Source of the DNA: Blastocatellia bacterium | GTDB taxonomy: Bacteria; Acidobacteriota; Blastocatellia; UBA7656; JADIYM01 | Assembly (NCBI GenBank): GCA_021463145.1 | Contig: JAJTWZ010000010.1 | Location: forward strand, 6,766 to 70,765 | Direction: 5' to 3' | Length of the DNA stretch: 64,000 bases | In this document: positions 7,101 to 30,008 of the stretch, piece after piece | Numbering within the stretch: the stretch's first letter is position 1 | Layout of the letters: each line of letters opens with the position of its first letter | The notes under the pieces: model-generated | Database searches by the model: none | Seen by the model: only the letters and a program-made list of their open reading frames with translations | Told to the model about the DNA's origin: nothing | Translations under genes and position numbers: made by a program

Positions 7101-7271
7101 CTCGTCGCGAGCCTCGGGTTCGTACCGATGGCGCTGGCGACTTCTGCCGGGGCCGAGGTTCAGAGGCCGCTGGCAACGGTGGTCATCGGAGGCCTCGTTA
7201 CATCGACCGTCCTGACGCTGCTGGTACTGCCGACTCTCTACAAGTGGTTCGAGCGCGAACCGGGAGAGTGA
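4182..7271 (+). CDS. czcA: Heavy-metal efflux RND transporter, CzcA/CusA (HME) family
   Basis: The 1029 aa protein has an N-terminus (MIDAIIRFAVSQRLLVFLMTG...PIDAVPDVTNVQVQVLT...ARQLVLERLSEAREQIPEG) that aligns closely with CzcA-type HME-RND pumps. Its start lies 3 nt after the czcB stop. Confidence 0.93.
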   Translation: MIDAIIRFAVSQRLLVFLMTGILVVAGINCLRRLPIDAVPDVTNVQVQVLTAAPSLAPLEVERQITFPVEVAMSGLPGIEEIRSVSKFGLSAVTIVFEDSTNIYFARQLVLERLSEAREQIPEGIGSPEMGPISTGLGEIYQYELVAAPESGYDATSLRTVQDWIVRRQMLGVPGVVEVNSFGGREKQYQVRLDPARLQAYDLTLRDVLDSVARNNANVGGAYIEHGEEQYLLRGLGLVESPDDIRNIVVKTGPEGVPVYVSDVGEVVTGATVRQGAVTADGKGEIVAGIAMMLKDENSRTVIERVKERVEQVRKSLPKGVELIPFYDRTELVDRTIRTVAINLVEGAILVVVVLILLLGNWRGALLVATIIPLSMLFAAICMVAFKVSGNLMSLGALDFGLIVDGAVVMVENAVRRRAEAQHDRKSEPPERTILEACLEVGRPVVFAVAIIMIVYLPILSLRGIEGKMFIPMALTVIFALAGSLLLSLTFIPAAMTLLLKGHVSETESPVIRLAKRWYKPSLAYVMRHRNPVVSSAFALVLLSGAVLPLLGSEFIPRLDEGSLAIQVQQLPSVSLSQSIATTTEVEKVLMTFPEVTKVVSKTGRAEVATDPMSVDFSDLYIALEPQEKWTSARTREELVEKMSNALEAGVPNASVSFSQPIELRVSELISGVRSDVGIKLFGDDLDTLKEKGDQIARVVSRVAGAEDVKAEAVSGLPQLQIRPDRAAIARLGLNVEDVNDVVESIVAGKEAGQVFEGEHRFALVVRFAELNEKNVESIRNLTLMAPGGARVPLGQVADVSLVEGAAQISREDARRRIAVECNVRGRDIGSFVGEAQAAIEREVVLPPGYYVTWGGQFENLERATERLLIVVPLALVLIFVLLFSTFGSVRLALLIYTGIPFAVVGGVFGLAVRGMPFSISAGVGFIALFGVAVLNGVVMVSYVDRLRKEGRSLAEAVIEGAETRLRPVLMTALVASLGFVPMALATSAGAEVQRPLATVVIGGLVTSTVLTLLVLPTLYKWFEREPGE

Positions 7272-7361
7272 CGCGGGCCGGCAGTCAATCTTCCCCCGGC
7301 AGGGGCGCCGCCGGTGGCGCCCCACCGTATCACATCTATAATGACGGTGGAGGACGATGTG

Positions 7362-8489
7362 ATGACCGATTCGAGTGTTCGTGTCGGGACGGTGCTTGGA
7401 ATCGAAGTTCGGGCGAGCCGCGCCTGGGCCTTCGTCATTCTGATCGTCGCGTTCCTGATGGCCTCGAATTACAGGGAGATGTATCCGGCCTGGCCGACGG
7501 CGAATCTCGTCGCCGCCGGCGCCGCCACGAGCGCACTCTTCGTCGCCTCGGTCGTCTTGCACGAGCTCGCGCATTGCGTCGTTGCCCGGGCGTTCGGCAT
7601 TCAGCCGCGCTGGATCACCCTTACGTTCTTCGGTGGAATGTCGTCGCTCGGAAGACAGGCAAGGCGGCCGATAGAGGAATTCTGCTACGCGATCGCGGGA
7701 CCCGGGGCAAACGTGCTCCTCGCCGTGTTTTTTCTGGTCCTGGACTACCTCCTGCGCGAGACTTTTCCGGTTGTCGCGGCAGTCCTGCATAGTGTGGGGC
7801 TGATCAACGTCATCCTTGCGGTGTTCAATCTCGTGCCCGGCTTTCCGCTCGACGGGGGCCGTGCGATGCGCGCCGGCATCTGGTGGGTCACGGGCAGCTA
7901 CGAAAAAGGCACGGTGGCGGCGGCAATATCCGGACAGGCCATCGCGGCGGTGCTGTTGATGGCCGGTATTGCGGCGGTGTTCGCGGGCAGTTTCGAGGGG
8001 ATAATGCTCGGCTTCGCGGGCCTTTACCTGCTCGGCCGGGCCCGAGCGAGTCTCGGGGAGGTCGCGATGCGACGCGCGCTCACGGGCCTGACCGTGCAGA
8101 GCCTCTGGCTCGAGACGCTGCCACAGGTCGAGCGCACCACCTCACTTGTGGAGTTCCTCCGCCAGCTTCCGCCTACTCGCGAAAGCGCGCCGGATCCGCA
8201 TTTCATGGTCGTCGACGAGGGTGTCATCTACGGCCTGATTCCCGCGTCGCGCGTCACCCGGATCGAGCCCGACAAATGGACCAGGCAGACGGTTGGCGAT
8301 GTCATGACGCCAATCGATCGTGTCGAGAAGCTGACGTTCGAAACGGAGATCGTCCGGGCTCTCGAGGCCGTCGCCGCGTCCGACGTCGACGAACTGCCGG
8401 TCATCGACGAGAACGTCGTGCAGGGCTTCGTCGGACGTGACGCGCTGATGCGGTTCGTTGCGAGCCGGCTCGCATCCGAGGGCGGATGA
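7362..8489 (+). CDS. Site-2 protease family (M50) zinc metalloprotease with C-terminal CBS domains
   Basis: The protein has the HELAHCVVA HExxH motif inside a polytopic membrane region. The C-terminus has a CBS-pair-like sequence (DVMTPIDRVEKLTFETEIVRALEA...ELPVIDENVVQGFVGRDALMRF). The start was chosen at the ATG at 7362, which is preceded by GGAGGA; the track ORF begins at a GTG at 7314. Confidence 0.8.
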   Translation: MTDSSVRVGTVLGIEVRASRAWAFVILIVAFLMASNYREMYPAWPTANLVAAGAATSALFVASVVLHELAHCVVARAFGIQPRWITLTFFGGMSSLGRQARRPIEEFCYAIAGPGANVLLAVFFLVLDYLLRETFPVVAAVLHSVGLINVILAVFNLVPGFPLDGGRAMRAGIWWVTGSYEKGTVAAAISGQAIAAVLLMAGIAAVFAGSFEGIMLGFAGLYLLGRARASLGEVAMRRALTGLTVQSLWLETLPQVERTTSLVEFLRQLPPTRESAPDPHFMVVDEGVIYGLIPASRVTRIEPDKWTRQTVGDVMTPIDRVEKLTFETEIVRALEAVAASDVDELPVIDENVVQGFVGRDALMRFVASRLASEGG

Positions 8490-25158: not shown

Positions 25159-25545
25159 ATGGCTATGGAAGCGCTCGGAATGGTCGAGACCAAGGGCTTC
25201 GTCGGTGCGGTCGAAGCCGCCGATGCGATGGTCAAGGCCGCGAACGTGATCCTCATCGGCAAGGAATACATCGGGTCGGGCTACGTGACCGTATTCGTTC
25301 GCGGTGACGTCGGTGCGGTAAAGGCCGCGACCGACGCCGGTGCGGCCGCAGCTCGACGCGTGGGCGAGCTCGTGAGCGTTCACGTCATTCCGCGGCCCCA
25401 CGTCGAGGTCGAGCGAGCCCTGGCGGCGCGAGGCATAGCGGTTCCGGCACACCTGGGAGCCGGAGCGGACAGGGCGCAGTTGACGGGCGGTGACGGCAGC
25501 CACTCGCTTCCGTCGACCGGCGCCAAGGATCGCGAGAAGAAGTAA
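25159..25545 (+). CDS. Bacterial microcompartment shell protein, BMC-H (PduA/EutM/CcmK family)
   Basis: The BMC-domain signature ([81 protein letters not shown]) is followed by a C-terminal tail of about 40 aa. An AAGGAGA ribosome-binding site precedes the start. Confidence 0.9.
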
Positions 25546-25650
25546 CACTCCACGCCGCGGTGTCCGTGCCGCGTAGCGCCGATGCTAGAGCTCCGAATGC
25601 GCGTGACGCACCGGGGCTCTTGTTCACCTGGCTGGGAAAGTGAGCCGCTA

Positions 25651-27366
25651 ATGCCGAACGACAAGGATCTCGAGTCGGTCCAGCAAGCGCGAAATCTCGT
25701 CGATGCGGCGCACGAGGCGCAGCAGCGCCTCGCCGGATTCGACCAGGCACGGATCGATCGCATTTGCGAGGCCATGTCAGCCGCCGGTCTCGCCGAGGCC
25801 GAGCGCCTCGGACTGCTTGCGCACGAGGAGACGGGATTCGGTATCCCGTCCGACAAGACCGTGAAGAACACGTTCGCGGCCGGCGACGTGCACGCATTCT
25901 TCAAGCCGATGCGGACGGTAGGGATCATCAGGCAGACCGAGACAATTCTGGAGATCGGGTCGCCGCGCGGCGTCGTGGCCGCCATCATCCCTTCCACGAA
26001 TCCGACGTCCACGGCAATCTTCAAGTGCCTGATCTCGATCAAGTCGCGAAACGGTGTGGTGTTGAGCCCGCATCCGAGTGCGGCTCGCTGCATCGCCGAG
26101 AGTGTCCGGATCATGTCCGAAGCCGCGGTCGCCGCAGGCGCGCCTCCCGGAATCATCGGGTGTATGACCGTTGCGACCGTTGAAGGCACCGAAGCGCTGA
26201 TGAAGCACAAGCGCACGGCAGTCATCCTCGCGACCGGCGGAATCGGACTCGTGCGCGCCGCTTACAGTTCCGGCAAGCCTGCATTCGGAGTCGGTCCCGG
26301 CAACGTGCCTGCCTATGTCGACGGCTCCGCGGACGTAAGCAAGGCGGCGCGCGACATCCTGACCGGCACCTGCTTCGACAACGGGACGATTTGCGCCTCT
26401 GAGCAGTCTGTCGTTGCGGACAGAGCCGTCGACGGTGCCCTCAGGGCAGCTTTCGAGGATCACGGGGCGCGCTTCCTGACCGCCGATGAAGCAGAGAAGC
26501 TGACCAGGGTCGTCGCGACTGGCACGAATGCGCTCAACCCGAAGGTCGTAGGGAAGCCCGCCAGGGTTATCGCGGAGATGGCCGGCATATCGTTGCCCGA
26601 CGGTGTCCGCTGCATGATCGCGGAGGTCGCGGGAGTCGGTCGCGACTATCCGCTCTCGATGGAGAAGCTCTCTCCGATCCTCACTTACTACACTGTCGAC
26701 GGGACGGCCGACGGCGTCGAGCTCTGCCAGAAAGTATTGCAATATGGCGGGATGGGCCATACCGCTTCGATCCATTCGCGCAAGCGGGATGTGATCGAGT
26801 TTTACGGCGAGCGCATCCCCGCGTCGCGAGTCATCGTGAACTCTCCGTCCACACACGGCGCCATCGGCTTCTCGACGGATCTGGAGCCGAGCATGACGCT
26901 GGGGTGCGGAAGCTGGGGTGGCAACGTTACGTCGGACAACATCTCGCCCTGGCACCTGATGGACATCAAGCGCATCGCGTTCGAGACGCGCGAGGTCGTT
27001 CCGAATGCCGCGCCGAAACCCGTGGCCAAGCGACCGGCCGCGACGTCGATTTCGCCGGCCCTCGCGGCGGCGCCGATCGAACGTGCCGACATCGCATCGC
27101 TCGTCGACCGCTTCATCGCCGAGCGCCGCAGCGAGGCTCCGCCGGCAGAGCCGGCACCGGCCGCGGCGCCCGCGGCTGCACCGGCCGCGACGTCGGAGCC
27201 AGCGCCCCCCGCACTGGCACCGGGACCTGCGTCCGAGTTCGTCTGCGAGGACGACGTCCGCCGCGCCATCAACGAGGGCCGCAAGATTCCGATCGATGCA
27301 AAGACCATCATCACGCCGGCTGCCCGTGAGCTCGGCGACGCGCGCGACGTCTTCGCGCGCCGGTAG
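25651..27366 (+). CDS. CoA-acylating aldehyde dehydrogenase (PduP/EutE-like) with a C-terminal Ala/Pro-rich linker and an encapsulation-peptide-like helix
   Basis: The aldehyde dehydrogenase core spans residues about 1-460 ([31 protein letters not shown]...CASEQS...GCGSWGGN). A linker of about 70 aa follows ([23 protein letters not shown]...[32 protein letters not shown]), then an amphipathic segment ([31 protein letters not shown]). The start is the ATG at 25651; the track ORF begins at 25582. Confidence 0.88.
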
Positions 27367-27375
27367 GAACCGCTC

Positions 27376-27711
27376 ATGTTTCTCGGGCACGTCGTCGGCA
27401 CCGTCTGGTCCACCAAGAAGACCCCGAACCTCGAGGGCATCAAGTTCCTCATCGTGCACCCGTACAACCTCAACAAGGAGCCGGGCACGGACATCGTCGT
27501 CGTGGCCGATCGTCTTGGCGCCGGCATCGGCGAAACGGTGATCTGCGCCTACGGGAAGGCGGCCCGTTCGGCGATCGGCGATCAGGATATGTCGATCGAA
27601 GCGGCTGTCGTCGGAATCGTCGACAGAATGGATCTTCAGGACTGCGGCTCGGACGATACCGTCGAAGCGGCGCGCCGCCTTCGGTCCGCGGGCGAGGGAG
27701 GCGCTGTCTGA
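27376..27711 (+). CDS. Bacterial microcompartment vertex protein, BMC-P (EutN/PduN/CcmL family)
   Basis: The sequence matches the EutN/CcmL pattern throughout (MFLGHVVGTVWSTKKTPNLEGIKFLIVHP...VVVADRLGAGIGETVICAYGKAARSAIGD...AAVVGIVD). It starts 9 nt after the aldehyde dehydrogenase stop. Confidence 0.88.
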   Translation: MFLGHVVGTVWSTKKTPNLEGIKFLIVHPYNLNKEPGTDIVVVADRLGAGIGETVICAYGKAARSAIGDQDMSIEAAVVGIVDRMDLQDCGSDDTVEAARRLRSAGEGGAV

Positions 27712-28673
27712 TGGCGAAGCGACGAACGACTGCTCCGCTCACCTCGGACGAACTGCAGGAACACCTGGTCGACATCTCTCCAGACGAGGTGCTCGAGCGG
27801 TTCGACGAGATTTTCGGACGGGACATCGATCTTCCGGAATCCCTTGAAGAGCTCTTGTCGCTCGACGACTACGTCGACTCGGAGTTGCGGGAGATGTTCC
27901 AGTCGATCATTGCTCAATATATGCGGCCGATCGAGTATGCGATCGAGCAGATTGGCGCCGGCGAGGCGACGCGGCGGACGGCCGAGGAAGCGGTCGAGGC
28001 GCTTCGTCCCATACGCGAGGCCTCCGAGTCGCTCGAGTACGACGACATCACGGAGATCCTCATCCGGATCGAGCAGCCGCTCGCCGAGTTTGCGAACGGC
28101 ACGAAGCGGAAGCTCATCAAGCGTGACATCACTGAGTTGAACGACGCCTGGAAACAGCTCGGCATGCTCCTCAGGCGCGAGTCCGATCGCGACGCGTCGC
28201 TGCCGACCTTGCTCTCGCTTGGAGGGCTGCCGCGCTACCTCGACGGCGTGACGACGGCACAGGTTCGCAGCCTGCGTGCGGCGGGCATAACGTCGCTCAA
28301 CGATCTCGCGGACGCGCCGGTCGAAGACATCATGGCCGTCGCCGGGCTGTCGCGCACGAGCGCCGAGCGGATCAGGGCCTTCTCGGCGGGGTCGGTGTCG
28401 GTCGCGGCGGCGGAGAATCGCGTCGGCTCGTCGGGGAAGCTTCCCGACGGCTGGATGCGCCTCGACATCGAGAGCGACACATTCCGCGGGCGAATCACCT
28501 TCGAGTACGCATCGATCGCGAAGTACCTCGAGCCGATCCTTGCGAAGCTCTCCGAAGACGGAAAGAAATCCCGCGTCGCGAAGCCGAAGTCCCGTCGAAC
28601 GACGAAGCCGCTCGTTTCGCAGCCCAAGCCCGCGCCGCGCGCGAAGCGCAGTCCCAGGAAAGCCACGACATGA
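27711..28673 (+). CDS. Hypothetical protein in the BMC operon: acidic helical N-terminus, helix-hairpin-helix-like motif and strongly basic C-terminal tail
   Basis: The 320 aa ORF is coupled to the BMC-P gene by a TGATG overlap. A helix-hairpin-helix-like segment is LRAAGITSLNDLADAPVEDIMAVAGLSRTSAERI. The tail is Lys/Arg/Pro-rich (KKSRVAKPKSRRTTKPLVSQPKPAPRAKRSPRKATT). No family was recognised. Confidence 0.6.
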   Translation: MAKRRTTAPLTSDELQEHLVDISPDEVLERFDEIFGRDIDLPESLEELLSLDDYVDSELREMFQSIIAQYMRPIEYAIEQIGAGEATRRTAEEAVEALRPIREASESLEYDDITEILIRIEQPLAEFANGTKRKLIKRDITELNDAWKQLGMLLRRESDRDASLPTLLSLGGLPRYLDGVTTAQVRSLRAAGITSLNDLADAPVEDIMAVAGLSRTSAERIRAFSAGSVSVAAAENRVGSSGKLPDGWMRLDIESDTFRGRITFEYASIAKYLEPILAKLSEDGKKSRVAKPKSRRTTKPLVSQPKPAPRAKRSPRKATT

Positions 28674-29122
28674 CCGAAGAGCAGATCATCTACGAGATCA
28701 CGAAGGCCGTCTTCAACCGCCTCGGCACGTCCGTCGAGCGATCGACGGTCGAGGATCTCGTCGCCGACGTGTATCGCGCGGTGCGACCTGCGGTGGCGGC
28801 CGGACCGGGCGCCGCCGCCGCTGCTGCGCCGCGCGACGAACGCGGTTCGCAGGATCGCGTGATCATCTCGGTCTTCGGGCTCGACCGGCCAGGCATCGTG
28901 TCGGCCGTGAGCTCGGTGCTTGCCGACGCCGACTGTTCGATCGTCGACATCAACCAGACGGTGGTGGGCGGGAAGTTCGCGATGGTGCTCGTGGCCGACA
29001 GCCGCCGTTCGACAACGGGCGTGGCCGAACTGAAGGACCGGTTCCGCGAGGCCGGACAGCGGCTCGGTGTGAACATCTACGCCCAGCGGGAAGACCTCTT
29101 CATCGCGATGCACCGCGTCTGA
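28670..29122 (+). CDS. ACT-domain protein with an N-terminal amphipathic-helix extension and Ala/Pro/Gly linker (possible BMC cargo or regulator)
   Basis: The ACT-like fold spans RVIISVFGLDRPGIVSAVSSVLADADCSIVDINQTVVGGKFAMVLVADS. The N-terminus has amphipathic helices (EEQIIYEITKAVFNRLG, VEDLVADVYRAV) followed by a linker (PAVAAGPGAAAAAAP). The gene is coupled to the upstream gene by an ATGA overlap. Confidence 0.65.
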   Translation: MTEEQIIYEITKAVFNRLGTSVERSTVEDLVADVYRAVRPAVAAGPGAAAAAAPRDERGSQDRVIISVFGLDRPGIVSAVSSVLADADCSIVDINQTVVGGKFAMVLVADSRRSTTGVAELKDRFREAGQRLGVNIYAQREDLFIAMHRV

Positions 29123-29296: not shown

Positions 29297-29581
29297 TTGG
29301 AAACCGTCAACATCGCGCAGCTCAAGAGCGAACTGAGTCGATATCTCTCGCTGGTGCGTGCCGGATCGGAGGTCATTGTCCGCGATCGCAATATTCCGGT
29401 GGCAATGCTCGTGCCGATCGATCTCGAGGACCTGACCTTGGAAGACATTGCCTTGGTAGCCTCGGGACGTCTGCGCCCACCCCGGTCGAAGCTGTCGAGC
29501 GATTTCTGGCGACGAACTCGCCCGAGCGTGAACATCGAGGATCTTGACCGTGCCATCGAAGCGGATCGCGAGGATCGCTGA
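29297..29581 (+). CDS. Type II antitoxin, Phd/YefM family
   Basis: The 94 aa protein has an N-terminus (VNIAQLKSELSRYLSLVRAGSEVIVRDRNIPVAMLVPID) matching the Phd/YefM fold pattern. It uses a TTG start and overlaps the downstream PIN-domain gene. Confidence 0.7.
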   Translation: METVNIAQLKSELSRYLSLVRAGSEVIVRDRNIPVAMLVPIDLEDLTLEDIALVASGRLRPPRSKLSSDFWRRTRPSVNIEDLDRAIEADREDR

Positions 29582-30008
29582 ACACGCGTTCTGGGACGCG
29601 AGCGCGGTTGCGCCACTGTGCATTCGGCAGCCTGCATCGGCAGACTCGCGCGTCCTTGCCCGGCGATACGGCATCGTGGCCTGGTGGGGCACACCCGTGG
29701 AGGTCACCAGCGCGGTCGCTAGACTCGCGCGTGAAGGCGTGCTCGATGTGGTGTCGGCTTCGAAGGCACTCGACGTACTTGACGCCCTCGAGCAATCGTG
29801 GCTCGAGGTTGTTCCGAGTGACGAAATCCGGGACGTGTCGCGACAATTGTTAAGGGCCTACTCGCTGCGGGCGGCGGACTCGCTGCAACTTGCGGCGGGA
29901 CTCGTCTGGTCGAACTCGAAGCCGTCCGGACGGGTGTTCATCTGCAGGGACAACCGGCTTGCTGATGCGGCCACGGCAATCGGCTTCGACGTTCGGCGGC
30001 CCAGTTGA
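29550..30008 (+). CDS. vapC: Type II toxin, PIN-domain ribonuclease (VapC family)
   Basis: The protein is about 150 aa with PIN-like acidic positions (FWDASAV...; ...DSLQLAAGL...). It overlaps the antitoxin gene. The start is ambiguous between a TTG at 29544 and a GTG at 29550. Confidence 0.65.
   Translation: MPSKRIARIAEHAFWDASAVAPLCIRQPASADSRVLARRYGIVAWWGTPVEVTSAVARLAREGVLDVVSASKALDVLDALEQSWLEVVPSDEIRDVSRQLLRAYSLRAADSLQLAAGLVWSNSKPSGRVFICRDNRLADAATAIGFDVRRPS

Follow-up and report, generated by a model that had tools for sequence, protein, structure and literature searches.

An acidobacterial microcompartment aldehyde dehydrogenase ends in a two-part tail whose terminal mini-domain has relatives in other metabolosomes

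The aldehyde dehydrogenase gene and the anatomy of its tail

The stretch of DNA analysed here (the "window", 64,000 nucleotides of contig JAJTWZ010000010.1 from a Blastocatellia bacterium, a soil acidobacterium) encodes a CoA-acylating aldehyde dehydrogenase (AldDh) placed between two shell genes of a bacterial microcompartment (BMC). In the Acidobacteria-specific ACI microcompartment, this gene provides the aldehyde dehydrogenase of the satellite locus, and it is an ordinary member of a published family. Its tail is composed of two conserved blocks carried on low-complexity linkers: "E1", a helix resembling an encapsulation peptide (EP), and "E2", a mini-domain that terminates the protein. 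Sequence profiles show homology between E2 and the N-terminal ends of EutT and EutQ, as well as the C-terminal ends of GrpD/TIGR02536 and PduM, with which it forms one small family; E2 also recurs on an acidobacterial ribose-5-phosphate isomerase B (RpiB). The gene and its parts are the following.

25651..27366, forward strand: AldDh gene with C-terminal extension, a complete open reading frame (ORF) of 571 amino acids plus stop
25651..27000, forward strand: catalytic core, CoA-acylating aldehyde dehydrogenase (residues 1-450), from Pfam, PDB relatives and the AlphaFold2 model
27001..27072, forward strand: linker 1 (residues 451-474), low-complexity, 17-37 amino acids long in homologues
27073..27135, forward strand: E1, EP-like amphipathic helix (residues 475-495), from conservation, the AlphaFold2 helix 478-492 and residue spacing
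27136..27231, forward strand: linker 2 (residues 496-527), Pro/Ala-rich
27232..27363, forward strand: E2 mini-domain of 44 residues (528-571), from conservation, AlphaFold2 and profile matches; it holds the segment singled out by an earlier reading of the sequence alone

The identification of the AldDh gene in that sequence-only reading is borne out by the ORF, the N-termini of homologues, Pfam and relatives of known structure. The start at 25651 (MPNDKDL...) is favoured over an upstream ATG at 25582: the same Met is found in 55 aligned homologues, where M1 is at least 90% conserved and the consensus reads MxSDKDL. A purine-rich stretch lies 7-16 bases 5' of this start. The Pfam model Aldedh (PF00171) spans residues 10-402 (E=2.5e-19), and the top match of known structure is an acetylating acetaldehyde dehydrogenase (PDB ID: 5j78, E=1e-148, aligned to residues 3-463). 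Other solved relatives of the core include 3k9d, a structural-genomics aldehyde dehydrogenase entry (E=4e-140), and the aldehyde dehydrogenase domains of AdhE. In the AlphaFold2 model of the full-length protein, built on a 56-sequence alignment, the predicted local distance difference test (pLDDT) of the core is mostly above 85. Full-length homologues, 120 in number, are 558-627 residues long with 60-97% identity, and the named ones belong to Acidobacteriota/Blastocatellia.

The ACI microcompartment type was defined by Sutter, Melnicki, Schulz, Woyke and Kerfeld (2021, Nat Commun 12:3809, Supplementary Data 2). Its main locus encodes a class II aldolase, a hydroxyacid dehydrogenase and a triplet of BMC-P shell pentamers; in its satellite AldDh, a ~50-residue domain of unknown function comes after an EP located towards the C-terminus, and a fourth BMC-P and an extra BMC-H (shell hexamer) are sometimes encoded alongside (Sutter et al. 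2021). The window gene shows the same CoA-acylating PF00171 core, the same succession of an EP (the E1 helix, 478-492) and a ~50-residue domain (E2, 528-571), and the same company of shell genes. The restriction of the type to Acidobacteria is found again among the named homologues, all from Blastocatellia/Acidobacteriota, and among the best 80 related loci, save for five contigs with odd labels (see the last section). The position apart from the main locus is also found: the neighbours are RodZ-like, helix-hairpin-helix (HHH), ACT-domain and toxin-antitoxin genes, although no scan was aimed at the aldolase or the hydroxyacid dehydrogenase. The satellite AldDh family and its tail of EP plus small domain are thus already known from Sutter et al. 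(2021), and the AldDh observation in itself changes nothing, because the tail had already been published in this form.

Sutter et al. (2021) distinguish two types among BMC aldehyde dehydrogenases: in type I (IPR013357, dominated by EUT2) the EP lies at the C-terminus, in type II at the N-terminus. A C-terminal EP, described by the sequence-only reading as the less common arrangement, is therefore an established class, as it defines the whole type I clade. The relation of the window protein to 3k9d and its C-terminal tag are consistent with type I, with the qualification that Sutter et al. (2021) link the ACI AldDh only to that of MIC3. The latter, its nearest phylogenetic relative in that work, likewise has a long flexible linker and a terminal domain of ~40 residues. 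The MIC3 domain, as published, possesses four conserved cysteines with no EP detected, whereas the ACI E2 has a single, replaceable Cys and an EP ahead of it.

Beyond the core, the tail of the AldDh measures ~110-125 residues and not the ~130 first proposed, and across the 120 homologues it resolves into E1 and E2 with variable low-complexity spacers between them. The Pro/Ala-rich linker foreseen by the sequence-only reading is indeed present, as two stretches of variable length with pLDDT below 50 (residues 455-473 and 493-522). Linker 2 varies from 22 to 82 residues among homologues and contains 28% Pro and 21% Ala. The same reading treated this whole region as plain linker, which does not hold, since the conserved E1 helix sits there in 120 of the 121 sequences, with a consensus vDRAEIAALVDRFLAERh and a per-column conservation of 0.7-1.0.

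E1 is modelled by AlphaFold2 as a 15-residue helix (478-492) between the disordered linkers. Its hydrophobic face (I481, L484, V485, F488, I489), read from the sequence, with helical-wheel angles computed besides, follows the i, i+3, i+4, i+7, i+8 spacing seen in EPs. Canonical EPs, exemplified by the N-termini of PduP, PduD, EutC and EutE, are amphipathic helices of ~15-20 residues on a flexible linker (Aussignargues et al. 2015, as reported by Sutter et al. 2021). By prediction, E1 is likewise one amphipathic helix of this size, next to a poorly conserved flexible linker; its helix, disordered flanks and hydrophobic spacing can be compared with LQRIVEEIVSR in PduM and LSQLLDRVIAE in GrpD. 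It differs from canonical EPs in its position inside the tail, as E2, and not E1, makes up the end of the protein. With this difference, we infer that E1 is a canonical EP. Some more distant AldDh tails (P0268 and P0225) contain two EP-like helices ahead of E2, e.g. ERDLIAAAVERYLAERN and AAEIVDRFLASRA, so that the tag does not have a fixed number of EP helices.

E2 forms the last 44 residues of the AldDh and displays 12 invariant columns in the homologue alignment; F530, E533, D535, T552, P556 and R559 are among its invariant residues. Its predicted topology is β-α-β-β-α-β, with a strand, a helix (533-542), two short strands, a second helix (556-564) and a final strand. The pLDDT of E2 is 87-95 in the full-length model, where residues 530-570 form a compact unit, and 92 when the domain is folded alone, with its topology unchanged. 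The cysteine C532 is nearly invariant, being Ser in a few AldDh sequences and Thr in RpiB. A Pfam scan of the tail returned no match, there being no Pfam model for E2. The conservation of both E1 and E2 extends well beyond chance: a scan of species genomes with an E2 profile retrieved at least 537 of them, the best 80 of which were used for locus comparison.

The sequence-only reading had taken residues 533-563 for a single amphipathic helix acting as the EP. In a broader form, the last ~30-60 residues would themselves be the EP and all that precedes them a linker. Some observations agree with it. The first E2 helix has the highest 11-residue hydrophobic moment of the AldDh (0.86, residue 536), E2-type sequences are found only on BMC-linked proteins in the searched sets, and residues 1-99 of EutQ, its E2-like part included, are sufficient to target green fluorescent protein (GFP) to Eut BMCs (Sci Adv 2025, eadx9774). 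The AlphaFold2 model, however, places the segment inside the 44-residue α/β unit, with two short helices of 9-10 residues, and the segment holds two prolines and a conserved β-hairpin-like motif, KIxIxxKTIITP. The 12 invariant columns are far above the sequence conservation of EPs, a separate helix with the EP pattern (E1) lies upstream, and the published description keeps the EP and the ~50-residue domain apart. Compared with the canonical EP, residues 533-563 are part of a folded β-α-β-β-α-β unit, and a single-helix EP at this place appears very unlikely. The structure prediction gives disordered linkers, a helical E1 and a folded α/β unit where the sequence-only reading had nominated the EP. 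Its wider idea, a linker-joined extension for association with a microcompartment, is retained with the support of the published BMC catalogue, and it is the nominated element that changes.

Relatives of E2 on other microcompartment proteins

The start of EutQ has a motif similar to E2, and the two were compared on actual sequences. A hidden Markov model (HMM) of E2, built from acidobacterial AldDh tails only, was searched against all ORFs of three characterised operons with a cut-off of E<0.01. In the eut region of E. coli K-12 (389 ORFs), the sole matches are the N-termini of EutQ (0.0029) and EutT (0.0035). The grp locus (glycyl-radical propanediol) of an E. coli plasmid (741 ORFs) yields only the C-terminus of GrpD (6.8e-4), and the Salmonella pdu operon (577 ORFs) only that of PduM (0.0036). 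These four matches score 11.8-15 bits, against 7.7 bits for the best unrelated sequence among 17,455 control ORFs (1,041 from the window and 16,414 from acidobacterial loci). A chance resemblance between E2 and EutQ was considered and rejected, because one and the same AldDh-only HMM gave EutQ, EutT, GrpD and PduM, and nothing else, in their operons, with controls at or below 7.7 bits.

Further comparisons agree. Aligned with hhalign to the AldDh E2 profile, EutQ matches over residues 5-39 (E=6.4e-5), EutT over residues 3-43 (E=3.3e-5), and GrpD over residues 201-224 (E=1.5e-5). When 34 E2 variants were compared with 18,950 NCBIfam models, 20 matched TIGR02536, 11 the EutT model, 6 that of EutQ and 1 that of PduM, and no unrelated family was matched by more than two of the 34. 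TIGR02536 is an ethanolamine-utilisation family, which GrpD matches in part, below the model's own cutoff. The GrpD C-terminus also matches the PduM model TIGR04493 (positions 109-152 of 153, E=2.5e-5) and the Pfam PduM model PF15953 (PDU_like; positions 105-152, E=2.6e-4); this Pfam model gives sub-threshold matches only, to relatives such as GrpD and RpiB. An HMM combining AldDh and RpiB sequences retrieves EutT (1.1e-7), GrpD (3.4e-10), PduM (0.0047) and EutQ (0.011), with no false positive at E<0.1. The shared core reads h-h-T/C-E-x-D-V-R ... I-I-T-P-x-A-R-D/E, and the profile similarity is significant across ~35-40 residues. The grouping is best supported for RpiB, GrpD and EutT; EutQ and PduM have moderate support.

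The search of the whole library with the E2 HMM gave 656 matches, of which the best 150 are C-terminal fragments of AldDh from short contigs. A homologue search with a two-sequence motif alignment retrieved only 38 short EutQ fragments, the method missing short domains inside longer proteins. In the literature searched, which excludes subscription journals, no paper was found that states the kinship of the E2 family or reports an EP-E2-tagged RpiB.

The RpiB case was found in one of the related loci (L015), where the gene located 5' of BMC-H (7246-7887, forward strand) encodes ribose-5-phosphate isomerase B with an E2-like N-terminus. This E2 was detected with E=7.9e-5 among 16,414 ORFs, and the single sequence gives E=5e-7 in hhalign; the alignment of RpiB E2 sequences with AldDh E2 reaches 96.8% probability (E=2.5e-10). 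All of the 120 closest RpiB homologues (P0309-P0428; 203-261 residues, from Blastocatellia and other Acidobacteriota) harbor E2 at their N-terminus. Most of the homologues inspected have E2 behind an EP-like helix, for example RDEIRNLVRETLRRQI, and a Pro/Ser/Ala linker; homologues of the L015 type (P0309-P0316) possess E2 without an upstream EP helix. These RpiB genes usually adjoin aminotransferase and phosphoribosyltransferase genes, with no shell genes nearby (as in loci L084 and L086). L015 is the only locus in which RpiB is adjacent to BMC-H and AldDh, and the window has no copy. Both the AldDh and the RpiB are present in the complete acidobacterial genome OY969418.1. Such a distance from shell genes would explain the absence of this RpiB from a catalogue built on shell-gene neighbourhoods. 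Carrying the EP-E2 tag, RpiB is probably an extra, hidden cargo of the ACI compartment.

Among the other proteins of the 80 related loci, E2 was found on none except the L015 RpiB and a 56-residue remnant in L007. In the latter (7525-7692, forward strand, ~2 kb 3' of AldDh), an ORF of 56 amino acids encodes a partial E2 copy, DDFVCEEDVQQAVKAGETI, which is probably left from a duplication or rearrangement.

The relatives of E2 differ in their surroundings. The H1/H2 region of EutQ (Held et al. 2016; Sci Adv 2025, eadx9774) resembles E2 in having a conserved ..IITPxARE.. core surrounded by two short helices. The EutQ module differs in being N-terminal, with no EP ahead, and in being followed by the EP-receptor helices H3/H4 and by a cupin domain; its support, as said, is moderate. 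PduM and GrpD/TIGR02536 share with the AldDh tag the N-to-C order of an EP-like helix, then an E2-like unit of ~40 residues. In PduM, the EP occupies residues 1-23 and the E2-like part residues ~129-157 of 163; in GrpD, the EP-like helix is MDNQTLSQLLDRVIAEVL... and the E2-like part spans residues 193-237 of 241. Both are stand-alone structural proteins of low abundance, with a body between the two parts, whereas the AldDh tag has a Pro/Ala linker in place of the body and is, as a unit, fused to an enzyme. The order of EP then E2 thus recurs on four different proteins: AldDh, RpiB, PduM and GrpD. Beside this comparison, residues 6-92 of E. coli EutQ (L001, 18303-19004, reverse strand) match the NCBIfam EutA model NF007991 at positions 2-88 (E=1.6e-9), and the whole EutQ N-terminal region seems, by this match, to be present also on some variants of the EutA reactivase.

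E2 might also be an appendage unrelated to compartment assembly, with a regulatory, cofactor-binding or oligomerisation role. The nearly invariant C532 and the invariant acidic residues could suggest ligand binding, the literature assigns no function to E2, and structural comparison offers no hint for or against. However, E2 is mounted on proteins of unrelated folds and chemistries (AldDh, RpiB, the EutT adenosyltransferase, the EutQ cupin and the flavoprotein-like GrpD), at either terminus and always separated by a linker, and in every ORF set searched (eut, grp, pdu and controls) it occurs only on BMC-linked proteins. The Cys, moreover, is replaceable: some AldDh have Ser at its position, and RpiB has Thr. 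We regard this alternative as highly improbable.

Possible roles of E1 and E2 at the shell-cargo junction

In the two metabolosomes studied best, the fastening of the enzyme core to the shell relies on EutQ and PduM. The N-terminal 100 residues of EutQ are needed for pull-down of EutM (Held et al. 2016). Deleting H1/H2 (residues 9-41, the E2-like part) separates the shell from the cargo, and shell binding has been ascribed to H1/H2, EP binding to H3/H4 (Sci Adv 2025, eadx9774). The EP-binding site was mapped by nuclear magnetic resonance and isothermal titration calorimetry to H3/H4 (residues 63-99), residues 2-62 showing no shift with EutC(1-20) (Sci Adv 2025, eadx9774). In PduM, residues 1-23 constitute an EP, which targets the core, and the body deprived of this EP keeps a weak association with microcompartments (2025 PduM study). 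Loss of PduM partly uncouples the shell from the core (2025 PduM study; Yang et al. 2022). PduM is said to have no known homology outside Pdu compartments (2025 PduM study).

By analogy with these proteins, it is reasonably probable that the ACI satellite AldDh carries a two-part association tag, in which E1 leads into the cargo core and E2 serves as a shell-side adaptor. The catalytic core would produce an acyl-CoA from an aldehyde generated within the compartment. The E1 helix would draw the AldDh, along with other proteins bearing an EP, into the cargo core, and E2 would act on the shell side of the shell-cargo junction, on the model of EutQ H1/H2 and PduM. The flexible Pro/Ala linkers would let one AldDh molecule be both packaged and tethered under the shell. 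The published ACI description reports no separate EutQ or PduM protein in ACI loci, and the tagged enzymes may therefore supply the linking function themselves.

Several observations weigh against this assignment of roles. The links of E2 to the experimentally studied proteins are the weakest in hmmsearch (EutQ, 0.003-0.011; PduM, 0.004-0.005), and were obtained in small ORF sets, whereas those to RpiB, GrpD and EutT, which lie outside the experimentally studied pair, are strong. The shell assignment of EutQ H1/H2 comes from deletion and localisation data together with AlphaFold, with no mapped interface (Sci Adv 2025, eadx9774). No solved structure resembles E2, the Foldseek search of its model against the PDB giving no match better than E=0.8. 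The hydrophobic moment of E1 is not distinctive, with 0.12 for the 18-mer and 0.64 for the best 11-mer, known EPs ranging from 0.23 to 0.53; this measure is not decisive as a test for EPs, hence the reliance on helix prediction and residue spacing. An HMM of E1 retrieved no known EP among the eut, grp and pdu ORFs, which says nothing either way, because EPs are not conserved in sequence. Taken together, the HMM search and the moments leave the EP status of E1 resting on pattern, context and published annotation. Finally, when the N-terminus of PduB is deleted, PduM follows the cargo and not the shell, which has placed PduM between PduB(1-37) and the cargo (Yang et al. 2022). The partner of E2 may therefore be an EP-like peptide of a shell protein or another adaptor, and not a shell tile.

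This behaviour of PduM, placed between the PduB(1-37) peptide and the enzymes, also points to the main rival of a shell-side role, in which E2 is a cargo-side module or adaptor that binds EP-like helices, tagged enzymes being cross-linked into a cargo condensate. Its partners could be the E1 of another AldDh molecule, acting in trans, the EPs of the aldolase or of other cargo, or the N-terminal peptide of a shell protein. EP and E2 occur together on AldDh, on most inspected RpiB, on PduM and on GrpD, as a self-complementary pair would, and the body of PduM is only weakly associated with microcompartments once its EP is removed. In EutQ, however, the EP-binding site is H3/H4, and the E2-like part lies within the residues (2-62) left unshifted by EutC(1-20). 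Besides, some RpiB, those of the L015 type, carry E2 without an EP helix. A cargo-side role is considered unlikely, and a shell-side role for E2 is kept as the preferred reading.

On the reading of E2 as a shell-side adaptor, a wider proposal can be made, which is tentative and to which we give somewhat less than even chances. E2 would be an unrecognised adaptor domain of ~40 residues used across metabolosome types, the shell-side half of a portable EP+E2 tag that does in cis what EutQ and PduM do in trans, and that marks RpiB as hidden ACI cargo. Its carriers are distributed over EUT1 (EutQ and EutT), PDU (PduM), GRM and, going by what the family is called, ethanolamine-utilisation loci (GrpD/TIGR02536), the ACI AldDh and the acidobacterial RpiB. 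If this holds, the EP-E2 tag would allow compartment cargo encoded far from shell genes to be found. An RpiB cargo would fit the sugar or sugar-phosphate role that has been proposed, from its class II aldolase, for the functionally unassigned ACI compartment. One small domain shared between systems would also offer a single object for mutation and binding tests, and a compact natural tag for loading engineered shells. What is new here is the kinship of E2 with EutQ, EutT, PduM and GrpD, and the EP-E2-tagged RpiB, a modest and testable lead.

Neighbouring genes and related loci

The genes that surround the AldDh gene in the window are the following.

25159..25545, forward strand: BMC-H shell hexamer gene, directly upstream of AldDh (PF00936, E=9e-29, residues 5-80 of 128)
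27376..27711, forward strand: BMC-P shell pentamer gene, directly downstream of AldDh (PF03319, E=8e-28)
27711-28673, forward strand: gene of a 320-residue HHH protein (HHH_5 at residues 178-222)
28670..29122, forward strand: ACT-domain protein gene (Pfam ACT_6, E=1.7e-15, residues 64-136)
29297-29581, forward strand: Phd/YefM antitoxin gene, overlapping the downstream ORF
29544-30008, forward strand: ORF downstream of Phd/YefM, PIN-like by eye, with no Pfam match

Across the 64-kb window, no shell-gene match was found beyond a single BMC-H and a single BMC-P, nor a second copy of E1 or E2. In the 80 related loci, the prevailing order is a RodZ-like gene on the reverse strand, then BMC-H, AldDh, BMC-P and the ACT gene, often followed by a second BMC-H. 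E2 terminates the AldDh in all 80. BMC-H is present in 75 of the 80, always 5' of AldDh where detected upstream; BMC-P lies 3' of AldDh in 37, and a second BMC-H comes after the ACT gene in ~27. The window locus fits this order except that an HHH gene follows BMC-P and that the second BMC-H is absent, and it displays no structural difference from the ACI description.

The BMC-H protein possesses a C-terminal extension of ~40-45 amino acids past the BMC domain (residues 81-128), which is Gly/Ala-rich and ends in KDREKK. The start of the HHH gene overlaps the stop codon of BMC-P, the C-terminus of its product is Lys/Pro-rich, and just one of the 80 related loci yielded a homologue; the gene has the look of a lineage-specific insertion separating BMC-P from the ACT gene. 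The pair formed by the antitoxin gene and the PIN-like ORF occupies the position that, in many related loci, is that of the second BMC-H after the ACT gene.

The ACT gene comes after BMC-P in 37 related loci, in which the N-terminal motif MANEELIYRITRAVYGRLG...VE.LVTDIYRAIEP of its product is kept. This conserved region of ~40 residues resembles two amphipathic helices and is followed by a variable low-complexity linker. The published ACI description makes no mention of this protein, a conserved member of the satellite locus and, from the look of its sequence, a possible further BMC-associated, EP-tagged-looking protein.

Nearly all of the best 80 loci come from metagenome-assembled genomes (MAGs) of Acidobacteriota, among them Blastocatellia, Pyrinomonadaceae, Vicinamibacterales, Terriglobia and Chloracidobacterium. 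Five MAG contigs (L021, L022, L023, L045 and L064) are labelled Heliomicrobium, Heliobacteriaceae or Clostridia. Their loci are acidobacterial-looking, with an AldDh core identity to the window of 64-68% and a GC content of 51-59%, and these labels are probably binning errors.

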